Both the position numbers and the translations under genes were made by a program. The notes under the pieces were generated by a model that made no database searches, was not told the origin of the DNA, and saw nothing but the letters and a program-made list of their open reading frames with translations. A stretch of 64,000 nucleotides of DNA from Nitrospirales bacterium. Its GTDB lineage: Bacteria; Nitrospirota; Nitrospiria; Nitrospirales; UBA8639. Location: assembly GCA_963555755.3 (NCBI GenBank), contig OY820905.2, forward strand, positions 3,040,001 through 3,104,000. The letters are read 5' to 3'. Below, piece after piece: positions 14,536-20,450 of the stretch. Positions within the stretch are counted from its first letter, which is position 1; each line of letters begins with the position of its first letter.

Positions 14536-15332
14536 GGATCATGCAGAATTTAGGGTTCTGGCAGCACAATACGATCAGGTGCACATAAATTTATGGCACT
14601 CCTCGTGGGTTATGTCGCCTCTCCTTTTGAGCGAATGGCGTCGTCTTGTATTGTTAGGTAGCTGCAGCATCTCATGCTGCCTCTTCCTGGCGTCATAGCC
14701 CCTTGGTCCGTGGGAAGAGGGCACGATACGATCGTGCAGCTAGTGCGCCTGTGAAGGCGTTTGATCAGGAGGGTGCAAGTCCCTCTCAGGCGAACGTTAC
14801 CAGCCTGAAGTCGACAGTGGTCACTGCGTTTCCGTGAGGAAGGGTGGAGAGCAATCTGAGACGAACGACCAGTCCGTAACGAAAGTGAACTCGATTCGGC
14901 CAAGCCTGTCGGGGAGGCTCCTAGCGATGTCCGAACCCTTGATCGCGCGACGGCAGATCCCTTCGACCTGAGAGTCTGCCCGGGGGATAGACGCGGCAAG
15001 TCACGGCGGTGACGTAACGTGGGAAAGCGACCGTGGCGAAATGGCAAGGTGGTGGTTGGAGATGGAATGGTCGGAAGGTCAAACGAGCTAAGCAGGGAGA
15101 TCTGTCGGGTGAAGGACGTGGACGACGTGTCGTGACCATTCGCAGTGGGGGACGCTGCGTGATCAATGGCCCAGGCCCCTCGGTGCCGTATCGCGTGCCG
15201 CAGGGGAACGAACGAAGCGATGCCGATGACGTTGGATGAAGCGGCTCGACAGAAGTCAGAGCTCTCATAATAGCTGGGAAGCCGTGCAGCATAACGCGGT
15301 GGAGCAAAGGGGAGCAGGAAGGTAGATGTGAA

Positions 15333-16191
15333 ATGACTAAACCGCCGACACGTCGAGCCTCGACCACGCGTCGAGATTACATCCCAGTCACAGTGCCGTT
15401 TTCGGCTACCCCGGCTGGGGAGCTTCCTGGGATCGACCAGTGGGCTCATCGAGCGGTTTGGACAGATCGCATGGTGGCGACACTGATGGCAGACAACGTG
15501 AGAGGAGGCAAATGGCACACGTTGATGGATAAGGTGTCTGGCAGCCTGAACCTGTCCTGCTCGGCCAAGAAGGTCCTGGGCAAGAACGGGGCTGCGGGCG
15601 TTGACCGGCAAACGTGTTCGGAGTTCGCCGAGCATGAGCGGGCGGAACTCGATCGGTTGCAAGCCGAACTGGGTGACGGAACCTATCGTCCGGCAGCGGT
15701 GCGGCGGCGGTGGATTCCCAAACCCGACAGGTCGGCGAAGCGCCCGTTGGGAATTCCGACCGTGCGGGATCGCGTCGTGCAAACGGCAGTGGTCCACGTG
15801 CTTGAGCCGATTATGGACGCCATGTTCCATGCGCGAAGCTGCGGCTGTCGCCACGGACGCGGGTGCCATGATGCCCTGCGGTGCGTCGAGGAATGGCTCG
15901 ACGCCGGGTATGTGTATGTTGTCGACGCGGATGTGCAGGAGTACTACGAGACGATTCCGAAAGATCGACTGGTGGCCAGAGTGCAACAGAAGATCTCGGA
16001 TCGCCGTGTGGTGGGCCTGGTGAAGAAGTGTCTGAACCAGGGGATTCTGGAAGAACTGCGGGAGTGGACGCCGGAAGCCGGTGGGCCGCAAGGCGCGGTG
16101 CTGTCTCCCATGCTGTCGAATGTCTATCTCAACCCCCTGGACCATCGGATGTCCGATCTCGGATTTCAGATGGTGCGCTACGCGGATGACT
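15333..16191 (+). pseudogene. ltrA: Outer intron RT/maturase, 5' part up to YADD
   Basis: GAAGVD, RPLGIPTVRDR, PQGAVLSP, RYADD; several degenerate motifs (SCGCR, QEYYETI, GGPQG). Confidence 0.85.
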
Positions 16192-18060
16192 GTGCGCCAC
16201 GAAGGCGCACAAAAGGACGTCAGTCCTTTGTGCAGCCATGCTGCACAAGAGATGAGGGGAGGCCCCTCGAAGTCGCTGTACAGGCGGAGGCTTCAAACCA
16301 CCCATGGCTGCTGCCTTTAAGAGAGGTGGTGGTGAGCGCAATGGGAAAAGGCAGGGCAAGACCCTGTCAGGTATGGACCGTCGAGTCGAACGTGAGTGAA
16401 CCGCTGAGGACGTGTCGAAAGCGTAGGGATGACGTCAAAACCGGGGGGGGATCGTTACTCCGGGAGGAATCTGGCGGGCACCTGGTTACTGGCCAGATGG
16501 CGTCCGGCATGAAGGCGGCGAGAAGGCGGTCCAGGCTCTTGTGGAGAACGTGGGAACCTGTCACCCCGATGCGAAGGGAGAAACGCAAGTGGAGGTCCCA
16601 CAAGCGTGAGAGTACCGAGGCGGGGTACAGGGGCGGAGCAACTCGTAGTAGTGAAGAAGGTTCTGTAATGGAGCTGGAGCGAAGGGGTTGCCTTATCGGG
16701 CTTGAGGGAAGAGAGCAACCAGCGATGGGAGGACTTTCGTGACTCAGGCCAAGCCATTTCCCATTACCCAACGTCAGGTGTGGGAAGCCTACAAACGAGT
16801 GAAAGCCAATCAGGGTGGGGCTGGGGTGGATGGCCAGACGGTGGCGGACTTTGAGCAGAGGTTGGACAACAACCTCTATAAGCTCTGGAACCGGATGGCC
16901 TCTGGGAGTTATCGGCCCCTGCCGGTCAAGCGGGTGGAGATTCCCAAGGCAGGCGGCGGCAGCCGTCCGTTGGGGATCCCGACCGTGGCAGACCGGATTG
17001 CGCAAACAGTGGTCAAACAGGCCCTGGAACCGGAAGTGGAAGCCCACTTTCACCCGGATTCCTATGGCTACCGACCGGGGAAATCAGCGCATCAAGCGAT
17101 TGGGCAGGCGCGCAGGCGGTGTTGGCGCTATGACTGGGTGGTGGACCTTGACATCAAAGGGTTCTTCGACACCATCGACCATGACCGGCTGCTGGCCATG
17201 GTGCGTCGGCATACCCAAGCTACGTGGGTGCTGCTCTATATCGAGCGATGGTTGAAAGCTCCGGAGCAAGTGTTGGACGGGACGGTGCGGGAGCGGACCC
17301 GAGGCACGCCGCAAGGGGGTGTCGTCAGTCCGTTGCTGGCGAACCTGTTTCTGCATTATGTCTTCGATGCGTGGATGAGGCGGTACTATCCGCACATCCC
17401 GTTTGAGCGGTATGCCGACGATGGGGTGTGTCACTGTCGCACCCGGAAACAGGCCGAACATCTGAAAGGGGCGTTAGCGCGGCGCTTTGCGGATTGGGGG
17501 CTTGAACTCCATTCGGAGAAGACCCAGATTGTATACTGCAAAGATGCCGATCGGCGTCTGGGGTATCCAATCACCGCCTTCGACTTCTTGGGCTACACGT
17601 TTCGCCCACGGCGGTCGAAGAACCGGTGGGGGAAATACTTCATCAACTTCAGTCCGGCCATCAGTAATAAGGCGGGGAAGGCGATCCGCCAGGTCGTGCG
17701 GAGCTGGCAGCTCCATCTGCGGAGCGATAAAGCGCTCGACGATCTGGCGCGGATGTTCAATGCGAAGATACGCGGGTGGGTGACCTATTACAGTGCCTTC
17801 TACCAATCGGCGTTGTACCGGTCCCTCCGGCACATCGATCGCAAACTTGTGCTGTGGGCCACTCGCAAGTTCAAGCGGCTGCGAGGCCACAAACGGCGAG
17901 CCGATCAGTGGTTGCGACGCATTGCGTGTCGGCAGCCCAATCTGTTTGCTCACTGGCGGTTGGTGTATGGACAGGCTAGATAAGAAGAGCCGGATGAGCG
18001 GAGACGTTCACGTCCGGTTCTGTGAGCGCCTCGAGGGGTGGTTCCTCGGGGCGACTCGAC
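16192..18060 (+). mobile_element. Inner group II intron, RmInt1-like (class D), 1869 bp
   Basis: 5' GTGCG at 16192; DV GAGCCGGATGAGCGGAGACGTTCACGTCCGGTTC; 3' GACTCGAC at 18060; removal restores YADD-FVILCR. Confidence 0.93.
16739..17983 (+). CDS. ltrA: Group II intron reverse transcriptase/maturase without endonuclease domain
   Basis: KPF...EAYKRVKAN.G.AGVDG, GTPQGGVVSP, RYADDG, FDFLG, LFAHW; GTG start after GGAGG. Confidence 0.95.
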   Translation: MTQAKPFPITQRQVWEAYKRVKANQGGAGVDGQTVADFEQRLDNNLYKLWNRMASGSYRPLPVKRVEIPKAGGGSRPLGIPTVADRIAQTVVKQALEPEVEAHFHPDSYGYRPGKSAHQAIGQARRRCWRYDWVVDLDIKGFFDTIDHDRLLAMVRRHTQATWVLLYIERWLKAPEQVLDGTVRERTRGTPQGGVVSPLLANLFLHYVFDAWMRRYYPHIPFERYADDGVCHCRTRKQAEHLKGALARRFADWGLELHSEKTQIVYCKDADRRLGYPITAFDFLGYTFRPRRSKNRWGKYFINFSPAISNKAGKAIRQVVRSWQLHLRSDKALDDLARMFNAKIRGWVTYYSAFYQSALYRSLRHIDRKLVLWATRKFKRLRGHKRRADQWLRRIACRQPNLFAHWRLVYGQAR

Positions 18061-18563
18061 TTGTCATCCTGTGTCGCACGCTGGAAGAAGCCGAAGCGGC
18101 GCTGGCCGAGGTGCGCCGGTGGGTGGAGGCCAATGGGCTGACACTGCATCCCGAGAAAACACACATCGTGGACTCGCGGGAGAAGAGCTTTTCGTTTCTG
18201 GGCTATTCGTTCCGAGGCCGGCTGCGGTTTCCACGAGCGAAGAGCCACCGAAAGTTCATCGCCCGCATCCGCGAGCTGACGCCGCAGAAATCGGGCGACT
18301 CGCTGGCGGTAATTCTCCACCGGCTCACTCGCTCGACGCAAGGGTGGTTCAACTACTTTCGGCACTGTTTTTGGAACATCTTCAAGGCCTACGATGGAAT
18401 GATCCGTCGGCGGTTGCGCCGGATGCTTCTGAAAAGGAACCGAAGGAATCGACAACGCCTCGCACGCAATCAACGGTGGCCGAACGCCTTCTTTGCGGAT
18501 CATGGGTTCACGAGCCTGAATGATGCCCATATTCGTTTCGTCCACTCCATAGGAACCTACTGA
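18061..18563 (+). pseudogene. ltrA: Outer intron RT/maturase, 3' part (RT5-7 and X/thumb)
   Basis: VILCR, GLTLHPEKT, FSFLGY, GWFNYF, RWPNAFF; spliced ORF is 453 aa. Confidence 0.88.
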
Positions 18564-18589
18564 CTGGAGAGCCGTATGCGGGAGAACTG

Positions 18590-20450
18590 CAAGCCGTTCA
18601 CTTAATCTGTTGACACAAACCAGCAAACAGACATAAACAGCGCTTGTTTGCTGGCTTTCTTGTTTTGGATCATGCAGAAAAAATCTTCCGCAACTTCTAC
18701 GCTGAAGCACCCTCGGATACCGCTCGAGTACGGTGGCTTCCAGATCAACCACTGCAAGTCTCCGGTCTGCTCGAACTACGGCGTTCCGCCAGAACAAACA
18801 TCGGTGCGTGGAAAAAATAGCTACACTCTGGATTCACGCAACCAAGGCATTTCATCCTGTATCTGCACGTCCTGCGGCGAAGGATTCCCTCTCAAGAGCA
18901 ACCTCGGCATCGCAGAAGAAGTCGAGCGCATGTCGGCCTACCTGTCGCCTCGTGAGATGGCGTTCTGCCGTAACGATGCCTGTACCAACCATACCGGTCA
19001 GGTGCCCGTAGGTACCGCTGGGGCATATGCCTCGTTCGGCAAGACCGCGATTGGCAGCCCCCGCTGGCGCGGTAGCGTCTGCGGTACGACGTTCTCACAG
19101 AACACCAAGGCCACCGCCCGGCAGCGGGAACATCACAAGAACAAGACCATTTTCAAACTGCTGGTCAACAAGCTGCCCGTGCGCCGAATCATCGAAGTCG
19201 CCGACATCCACCCCAAGACCTTCTACCACCGCCTCGACTTCCTCCATCGCCAGTGCCAATCATTTGCCGCCCACCGCGAGCACGCCCTATCCACCCTCCC
19301 CATTCGGCGACTGTACCTCGGCGTGGACCGGCAGGACGACCTTGTGAACTGGATGGTTCGCAAGGACAAGCGCAACATTCAGCTATCGGCCATTGCATCA
19401 GTGGACAACGAACACGGTTACGGCTTCGGTGTCCACCTTCACTTCGACCCTTCTCTGGACAGCGAAGCTGTCCAAGCCGAAGTCGAGAAGAGCGGCGACC
19501 TTGGCATGCCCTATCCGCATCGTCGCGTTGCACGTCTGTGGCTCAATGCAGACCATGAGCGAGCCAGTGCCAAATCCCTACGCACTTCGCGGCGCAAACC
19601 CGGACTGCCAACGCAGATCGATGAAGCCTATGCCGCAGCATTGATGCGTGACGATATCGAAAGCCCCGATGCGCCGTCGCCCGTAGAACGACTTCCTGAA
19701 TACGGGATGCCAACCCATGGCGAGTACACCATGTCTGGGCATTTTTTCTTCCTCAAACGCCTGCTGGGCAATGTCCAAAAGTGGCGCTTCTTTATCGACC
19801 AAGACCCTGGACTGCGAGCCGCGTGCCTATCGGCGTTCCACGACGAGATCCGAGGCCGCACGGCGGAGGCCTTCTCTGTTCGCATCACCAAAGATCTGAC
19901 GGTGGACGAAACGCGTCAAAAATACAACGAAGCGACGATGCTGTTCGTGCACGCAGAGCTCGCGCACCCAAAGATGAAGCCGCAGGAGGTCAAGTTGCTG
20001 CTGATCAAAGAGCGTCTGGCCTGTATGACGCCGCACGGGAAGTGGCAGGATCGGTGGCTTGACCATCCTTTCCCGACCATGAGCGAGCCAGAGAAGACAG
20101 TGGCCTCCCTCACCAATCTGGGCGACTACGACGAAGACCACAAAGCTTGGCTCTACAACAAAGCGAGCGTGCATGGTGTCGATTCGTTCTTCAACCAAGT
20201 GCGTCGACGGCTCTCCCTGCTGGAGCGTCCGATCCATTCCAAATCCAACAATGGTCGGATATGGAACGGATATTCTCCATATAACCCGGGTAATGTTGCA
20301 AAAGTACTCGACATCATGCGCACGGTGCATAACTACATCCTGACCGGCAAGGATGGCAAGACGCCAGCTGTGCGACTTGGATTGGCCCAAGCGCCGCTGG
20401 ACTACGAAGCCATTATTTATTTTGCATCAACAGATTAAGTGAACGGCTTG
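18590..20450. mobile_element. Unclassified IS, 1861 bp, perfect 24-bp TIR CAAGCCGTTCACTTAATCTGTTGA, 9-bp TSD GGAGAACTG, inserted in intron domain V
   Basis: TIRs at 18590-18613 and 20427-20450; TSD at 18581-18589 and 20451-20459 (an 11-bp TSD/23-bp TIR reading is equivalent). Confidence 0.92.
18672..20438 (+). CDS. Putative large transposase (zinc ribbons, HTH, probable DDE core)
   Basis: Sole long ORF filling the TIR-bounded element; CxxxxC/CxxC motifs, FGKTxxG, GVD...IDQD, C-terminal TPAVRLGL; stop lies inside the right TIR. Confidence 0.75.
   Translation: MQKKSSATSTLKHPRIPLEYGGFQINHCKSPVCSNYGVPPEQTSVRGKNSYTLDSRNQGISSCICTSCGEGFPLKSNLGIAEEVERMSAYLSPREMAFCRNDACTNHTGQVPVGTAGAYASFGKTAIGSPRWRGSVCGTTFSQNTKATARQREHHKNKTIFKLLVNKLPVRRIIEVADIHPKTFYHRLDFLHRQCQSFAAHREHALSTLPIRRLYLGVDRQDDLVNWMVRKDKRNIQLSAIASVDNEHGYGFGVHLHFDPSLDSEAVQAEVEKSGDLGMPYPHRRVARLWLNADHERASAKSLRTSRRKPGLPTQIDEAYAAALMRDDIESPDAPSPVERLPEYGMPTHGEYTMSGHFFFLKRLLGNVQKWRFFIDQDPGLRAACLSAFHDEIRGRTAEAFSVRITKDLTVDETRQKYNEATMLFVHAELAHPKMKPQEVKLLLIKERLACMTPHGKWQDRWLDHPFPTMSEPEKTVASLTNLGDYDEDHKAWLYNKASVHGVDSFFNQVRRRLSLLERPIHSKSNNGRIWNGYSPYNPGNVAKVLDIMRTVHNYILTGKDGKTPAVRLGLAQAPLDYEAIIYFASTD

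Follow-up and report, generated by a model that had tools for sequence, protein, structure and literature searches.

A class D group II intron of a Nitrospirales bacterium at the YADD codons of other reverse transcriptase genes

In a 64,000-nt stretch of a Nitrospirales genome (the whole of the DNA analysed, hereafter the window), one group II intron interrupts the reverse transcriptase (RT) gene of another, and the break falls at the codons of the catalytic YADD motif. Is the inner intron programmed by base pairing to enter such codons in RT genes other than its own, as the original prediction proposed, and is its own YADD spared? It is highly probable that this is a class D intron, present in the genome as three identical copies, each in a different RT gene, one base past the YADD codons, and likely brought there by EBS2, EBS1 and EBS3 pairing during retrohoming. 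The case for self-avoidance is weak. The features on which the argument draws are listed below, in window coordinates, with a slash marking the insertion point here and throughout.

14743..16191, + strand: outer group II intron, 5' part with the first part of its RT (GTGCG at 14743; TIGR04416 positions 3-215; weak RF02003 match)
16178..16191, + strand: 5' exon target, YADD codons of the outer RT and the base after them, CTACGCGGATGACT
16179-16183, + strand: IBS2 (TACGC, -13..-9)
16185-16191, + strand: IBS1 (GATGACT)
16192..18060, + strand: inner group II intron, class D (IIB), 1869 nt
16421..16425, + strand: EBS2 (GCGTA), in an unpaired internal loop of domain I (comparative fold, covariation)
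16441..16463, + strand: Id3 hairpin, stem 16441-16446/16458-16463, loop 16447-16457 (single and comparative folds)
16450..16456, + strand: EBS1 (GATCGTT), in the Id3 loop (covariation and folds)
16512, + strand: EBS3 (A), pairing with T at +1 (covariation; unpaired in the consensus fold)
16739..17983, + strand: intron-encoded RT/maturase (IEP), 414 aa, YADD intact, without endonuclease domain (TIGR04416)
17410..17424, + strand: the inner intron's own YADD-G site, GTATGCCGACGATG/G, mismatched at -1 (G.G) and +1 (A.G)
18061, + strand: IBS3 (T), second base of the Phe codon following YADD
18061..18591, + strand: outer intron, 3' part, with the remaining RT and its stop at 18563 (TIGR04416 positions 217-352; alignment with intact copies)

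The inner intron and its pairing with the target

The inner intron starts with GTGCG at 16192 and ends with ...ACTCGAC at 18060, and Rfam models match it at 16254-16372 (RF01999) and 17985-18060 (RF00029); its GUGYG start, AY end and domains V and VI are those of class D (IIB3). The IEP scores 443.6 bits against TIGR04416 (cut-off 300), and its C-terminus, LRRIACRQPNLFAHW, agrees with the class D motif LX3AX3PXLF[V/A]HW, as given in the available part of PMC4615759. The class D assignment made earlier is thus supported by the ends, the Rfam matches and the protein motif, and both the insertion one base past the YADD of the outer RT (YADD-F) and the sequence strings quoted for it were all found in place. 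When the inner intron is excised in silico, with the 3' exon from 18061 beginning TTGTC, the outer RT reads RYADD-F-VIL again.

The outer intron has three paralogous empty copies elsewhere in the genome. Its domain V is interrupted at ~18591 by an IS-like element and, judging from this cut, splicing of this copy is likely to be impossible. The element itself (18591-20438) holds a 596-aa ORF with a weak match to IS1 transposase, and a similar cut is seen in copy C1:1027. The outer intron inserts at one or other end of an 80-bp hairpin that belongs to a dispersed repeat (32 BLAST hits, ~20 near full length), and TGCAGC[TG]A/C is on offer at both ends. In the window the outer intron follows the right hairpin arm (14660-14745), and the three other copies lie at the left arm on the opposite strand (C1:4584818-4584897, 1009668-1009747 and 1028920-1028999). 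Further along, at 52184-57427, the window carries a complete rRNA operon and two tRNAs, which are ordinary.

At a single locus, complementarity between intron and exon could arise by chance, since in a domain I of 550 nt ~0.13 perfect 6-mer matches are to be expected by accident (550/4096), but comparative covariation data remove this doubt. Specifically, mutual information (MI) was computed between exon and intron columns over 107 unique junctions. The top intron column is 16450 for exon position -1, 16451 for -2, 16453 for -4, 16454 for -5 and 16455 for -6, while 16452 and 16456 come second for -3 and -7, respectively. The folds agree with these columns. An RNAalifold consensus was built from the window sequence and 43 relatives chosen for diversity among 98 distinct domain I sequences, and in it GCGTAG, GATCGTT and A16512 are all unpaired. 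The 31 pairs counted in it are kept in 97.6% of cells (slid controls, 32-50%), and 24 of them vary on both sides, including all six of the Id3 stem; GATCGTT lies in a hairpin loop in the single-sequence fold too. The predicted role of GATCGTT as EBS1, displayed in the Id3 loop and pairing with -7..-1, is therefore borne out.

For EBS2 the covariation is weaker: 16423 and 16424 rank first for -11 and -12, 16422 ranks third for -10, and neither 16421 nor 16425 is among the top four columns for -9 and -13 over the same 107 junctions. The original prediction had paired GCGTAG with CTACGC (-14..-9). EBS2 does lie there, in an unpaired loop, but the pair of G16426 with -14 is unsupported, the bases at -14 over 81 junctions being A12/C27/T18/G24, and therefore EBS2 is effectively 16421-16425 against -9..-13. 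The single EBS3 was missing from that account: for +1, A16512 is the top MI column, with 72% Watson-Crick pairs (n=88). EBS1 in the Id3 loop, with EBS2 and a single EBS3 in unpaired loops, is the arrangement of class D (IIB3). No clear covarying partner for 16449, as sought for a delta-delta' pairing, was found among the relatives' sequences. The further remark that this EBS1 fits GAY-GAT-Y better than the site it occupies is correct: the usual EBS1 of the family is AGTCGTT, and the GATCGTT of the window is a derived variant, because a relative with an IEP 91% identical (L083) carries AGTCGTT.

Target sites in this genome and among relatives

The three copies, at C1:6424-8292, 3056192-3058060 (the window) and 799543-801411, are 100% identical, and in all three the 5' exon ends with RYADD codons plus one base: TAC GCA GAC GAC T/TC, TAC GCG GAT GAC T/TT and TAT GCC GAT GAT C/TG. 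They represent three separate insertions, because the three host RT genes are only 36%, 42% and 63% identical in their 5' parts. In sequencing runs X1 and X3 the depth at the window junctions is 140 and 101 against an intron depth of 406 and 314, that is, about a third, and the loose ends of the contigs match the other two hosts. All three copies are co-directional with replication; so are 32 of the 34 group II RT loci of the genome, which makes this orientation uninformative on lagging-strand preference. YADD-C (T/G), which breaks the EBS3 pairing, stands in two of the three empty outer-intron copies (C1:1008229 and 1027481); possibly these are escape variants or the result of decay. A weak hint of splicing of the inner intron comes from a single RNA contig of run X8 (depth 2.8), in which 16191 is continuous with the 3' exon and the window-only G16084 is present, with empty paralogues and DNA carry-over as possible sources; at host G1 (C1:6423/8293), where the joined sequence would be unique in the genome, RNA cover at the junction is zero.

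The 34 RT sites were scored against EBS2 (5 nt), EBS1 and EBS3. Three of the 11 sites with at most one mismatch are filled, against none of the 23 with two or more (Fisher p=0.028, with sites that are not independent); the three own sites and 13 FADD-L sites fall among these 23. Against the present EBS1, two of the three filled sites are mismatched at -2 (A.C). Genome-wide, 763 sites pair with at most one mismatch, wobbles allowed, and yet RT genes received 3/3 insertions; EBS pairing is thus not a sufficient explanation of the specificity.

Relatives were gathered by similarity to the inner IEP, so that the shares of targets among them are not those of class D overall. They comprise the best 80 of 435 loci from genome contigs, the best 80 of 560 from metagenomes, 30 from a search of 401 genomes of the phylum, seven plasmid loci and the single relative found in viral contigs. 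A duplicate (L168) and a Shigella plasmid locus (L161, 69.5%) with domain I absent in the stretch examined were excluded, and junction counts omit loci without a visible 5' end. Among introns with a YADD-type EBS1, 71 of the 81 unique junctions follow [YF][ACT]DD, eight are near-matches and two are different (L042, L051). An RT is matched by 66 of the 80 flanks tested with tblastn, and the residue after the host YADD may be F, C, L, V, W, Y, I, G, A or S. Close homologues are thus mostly in RT genes, and the proposal that the inner intron and its kin target the YADD codons of other RT genes stands. Family matches identified no retron, DRT or CRISPR RT among the scanned flanks (35 + 9 + 3 pieces); the host of L167, a Bacillus thuringiensis plasmid intron, is the retron-like RT described in the available text of PMC2504315. 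G-15, present in 77/81 junctions, is a possible contact of the IEP, but the Arg codon also fixes this base.

Some of these loci are composite. In L042, L045 and L105 one gene supplies the 5' exon and another the 3' exon, which points to recombination between copies of the intron or to chimeric assembly. In one Gammaproteobacteria MAG (L021, L023, L024, L026, L033, L034, L068) a YADD-homer carries another RT element, inserted upstream of the homer's own ORF; in L068 a further YADD-type domain I comes after the interrupting RT.

The same distribution might be produced by survival instead of targeting, if insertion were broad and only copies in dispensable RT genes persisted. The hundreds of genomic sites that pair about equally well favour such a view, and two insertions do lie in non-RT genes, namely YADD-type introns in-frame in a GH94 glycoside phosphorylase-like gene (L037:292-4418, RYGDD-L) and in an OLD-family ATPase/TOPRIM gene (L085:1533-5412, SYADD-L). 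However, survival cannot explain why the same base and phase recur in 79/81 junctions, or why the EBS spells the complement of the YADD codons across IEPs down to 56% identity, and as a full explanation it is extremely improbable. The invasion of non-RT genes that happen to spell the motif shows that the DNA sequence decides the target; survival may still enrich RT genes among motif-bearing sites.

Targeting by EBS pairing would proceed by a retrohoming mechanism modelled on RmInt1 (available parts of PMC4615759, PMC4075523 and PMC5894124). The spliced lariat with its RT would reverse-splice into the sense strand, guided by EBS2, EBS1 and EBS3, and, without an endonuclease, a replication-fork primer would presumably be used. 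IEP contacts, such as one with G-15, or selection may add to the pairing. No DNA motif is better conserved across group II RT genes than this target, which would therefore provide fresh sites in any genome with retroelements, while host genes would rarely be harmed. The locus is in this sense a clean example of a published habit, a retroelement landing on the most conserved DNA of other retroelements, and the genome lends itself well to a natural test, since its 34 RT loci span a gradient of fit, three are filled and each host has empty paralogues.

The intron's own site

The original prediction also held that the G-G clash at -1 of the inner intron's own YADD-G site could by itself prevent self-insertion. 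The clash is real and none of the three own sites is filled, but such a strict block is not borne out, as -1 mismatches are tolerated at used sites: 20/69 of these are mismatched there (11 A.G, 1 G.G). The G.G case is L086, with EBS1 GGTCGTT at a site ending GACGACG (one case, with 55 nt of flank). Moreover, this EBS1 position is A, not G, in most relatives. A block by the lone G-G pair is therefore rejected as a general rule and is very unlikely here. G occupies -1 in 13/81 junctions, and the AG-to-GA change in the window EBS1 turns a wobble into a Watson-Crick pair at -2 of the own site.

A broader form of the idea is that selection has kept the own YADD-G unpairable at both -1 and +1, leaving the intron immune while it attacks other RTs, its kin included. 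Own sites have on average 1.96 mismatches (n=67) and used sites 0.89 (n=62), about a twofold difference that arises because -1 and +1 both fail, and the host was the same intron in 0/80 tested hosts, in keeping with the empty own sites of this genome. In RmInt1, EBS3-IBS3 is Watson-Crick in 88/88 selection events, according to the available part of PMC4075523. In line with this, the own +1 is C in 1/13 introns with EBS3=G against 34/67 with another EBS3 (Fisher p=0.005), but the link is not significant once kinship is taken into account (seven independent pairs, ~3 in the same direction and none opposite, p=0.25). Many natural used sites are mismatched at +1, unlike the RmInt1 selections, and some at both -1 and +1 (L006, L126). 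There are also counterexamples among the introns themselves: the own site of L116 is without mismatch in EBS1, EBS3 or the 5-nt EBS2, L003 lies within a class D host that shares 85% identity with the L003 IEP (DNA 83%), and L105 follows a 5' host 73% identical. In this genome the own sites are no worse than the 13 empty FADD-L sites. Finally, any self-insertion would make a long direct repeat, removable by recombination, so that self-insertions would vanish and be hard to assemble.

Selection for self-avoidance is therefore rather unlikely. The residue after YADD points the same way: G or A is general there in class D, with 17 G, 19 A and 1 T in relatives with other targets (n=37), while the own -1 is G in 74/80 YADD-homers. 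The simplest reading is that the EBS is tuned to the common YADD-F/L/C and that class D has G/A/V at this place for older reasons, the own gene being a poorer but not a forbidden target. The available parts of PMC4649490, PMC3245105, PMC8090892 and PMC12584367 add nothing on this point.

Target shifts in class D and known systems

On IEP trees (quick LG+G4 or FastTree), YADD-type EBS are spread through nearly the whole sample. A single exclusive clade of YADD-homers (31 rows vs 23, 54 rows in all) is rejected by the AU test (p-AU 2e-117). Several transposase-targeting lineages nest among the YADD-homers: in the IEP tree, starred sister pairs join YADD-homers with an IS3 targeter (L118/L103), with two IS66 lineages, one of them a clade (L162) and the other L029/L151, and with others. 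When the tree is built from domain I minus its EBS columns, the pairs L029/L151 and L118/L103 reappear, as do, less well supported, L162/IS66 and L003/L011. RmInt1 falls inside the YADD-homers in the best tree (SH-aLRT 98), and an alternative tree that places RmInt1 and seven other-target rows beside the outgroups is not rejected (40 rows, p-AU 0.33), so that its nesting is tentative.

Thirty-two lineages with other targets were delimited from the trees, excluding rows without a 5' exon. In eight of them an Asp codon occupies -7..-5, compared with 0-2 lineages for any other offset between -12 and -3: IS66 KYxDH twice, IS3 STDI and DN twice, IS6 HLDE twice and RmInt1 FIDE. The target families were tested for some of these lineages and are otherwise assigned from their motifs. 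A scenario that we put forward tentatively, and hold to be somewhat less probable than its negation, is that YADD codons were the original target of a large part of class D, instead of the speciality of a small side family. Targeters of IS66, IS3, IS6 and perhaps ISRm2011-2 (RmInt1) would then have arisen repeatedly by few EBS changes, keeping the EBS1 half that reads the Asp codon at -7..-5 (phase 1) and stepping from the RT active site to the Asp motifs of transposases; within the YADD-homers, mismatches at -1 and +1 may give partial self-immunity. If class D, RmInt1 included, does descend from YADD-homers, the evolution of target sites in group II introns could be followed one base at a time, and a single type of intron may damp RT-based elements generally, B.th.I3 sitting in a retron-like RT. 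The intermixing of YADD-homers with other targeters and the retained Asp codon are possibly new: a full-text literature search, which did not reach Dai and Zimmerly 2003 or Simon et al. 2008, found no statement of this pattern of ancestry and retargeting.

The YADD-targeting habit as such is not new and has been in print since 2008. According to the available text of PMC2504315, the introns B.th.I3, M.a.I5, UA.I3 and P.l.I2 insert in the catalytic RYADD motif of RT ORFs, are 58-67% identical, lack an endonuclease and probably have one origin. Here B.th.I3 denotes the B. thuringiensis israelensis intron in the sense of Tourasse and Kolsto 2008: Table S1 of PMC3552965 lists an israelensis intron with the sizes of L167, together with M.a.I5, as class D, while Table S2 of the same paper gives the name B.th.I3 to a different intron (group g2). 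Like these RYADD-homing introns, the inner intron is inserted one base past the YADD codons, is ~1.8 kb long and is without endonuclease; the likeness to M.a.I5, UA.I3 and P.l.I2 is drawn from the published description and that to B. thuringiensis from the sequence of L167. The latter (1866 nt, 420 aa) stands directly after the published target motif, has the same EBS2, GCGTAG, and an EBS1, AGTCGTT, that is the same in 5/7 positions, and is 61.0% identical in DNA and 58% in protein. This falls within the 58-67% DNA identity over ~1.8 kb of the published members, but such a range is unspecific, as RmInt1 reaches 61.5%. The inner intron differs from the B.th.I3 type in its EBS1, GATCGTT, and in its three recent copies in three host families of one genome.

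RmInt1 (Sr.me.I1 of Sinorhizobium meliloti, class D/IIB3) likewise has the class D motif and no En domain, a 7-nt EBS1 against -7..-1, a 5-nt EBS2 and a single EBS3, and both introns pair an Asp codon at -7..-5; the locus L163 agrees with the published RmInt1 EBS1/IBS1 and EBS3. Its IEP is 54% identical to that of the inner intron, but its target is the ISRm2011-2 transposase ORF (FIDE-T) and not an RT. Homing of an intron to a conserved site in the ORF of another is also known from other bacterial and archaeal twintrons, TeI3-in-TeI4 of T. elongatus and the nested arrays of M. acetivorans (available parts of PMC2882425 and PMC4424553). TeI3, as described there, is ORF-less and lies between the first two ATGs of close kin; unlike TeI3, the inner intron has an RT gene of its own, and its landing site is the catalytic motif in RTs that are only distantly related. 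It is an additional member of the kind described in 2008, real and well supported.
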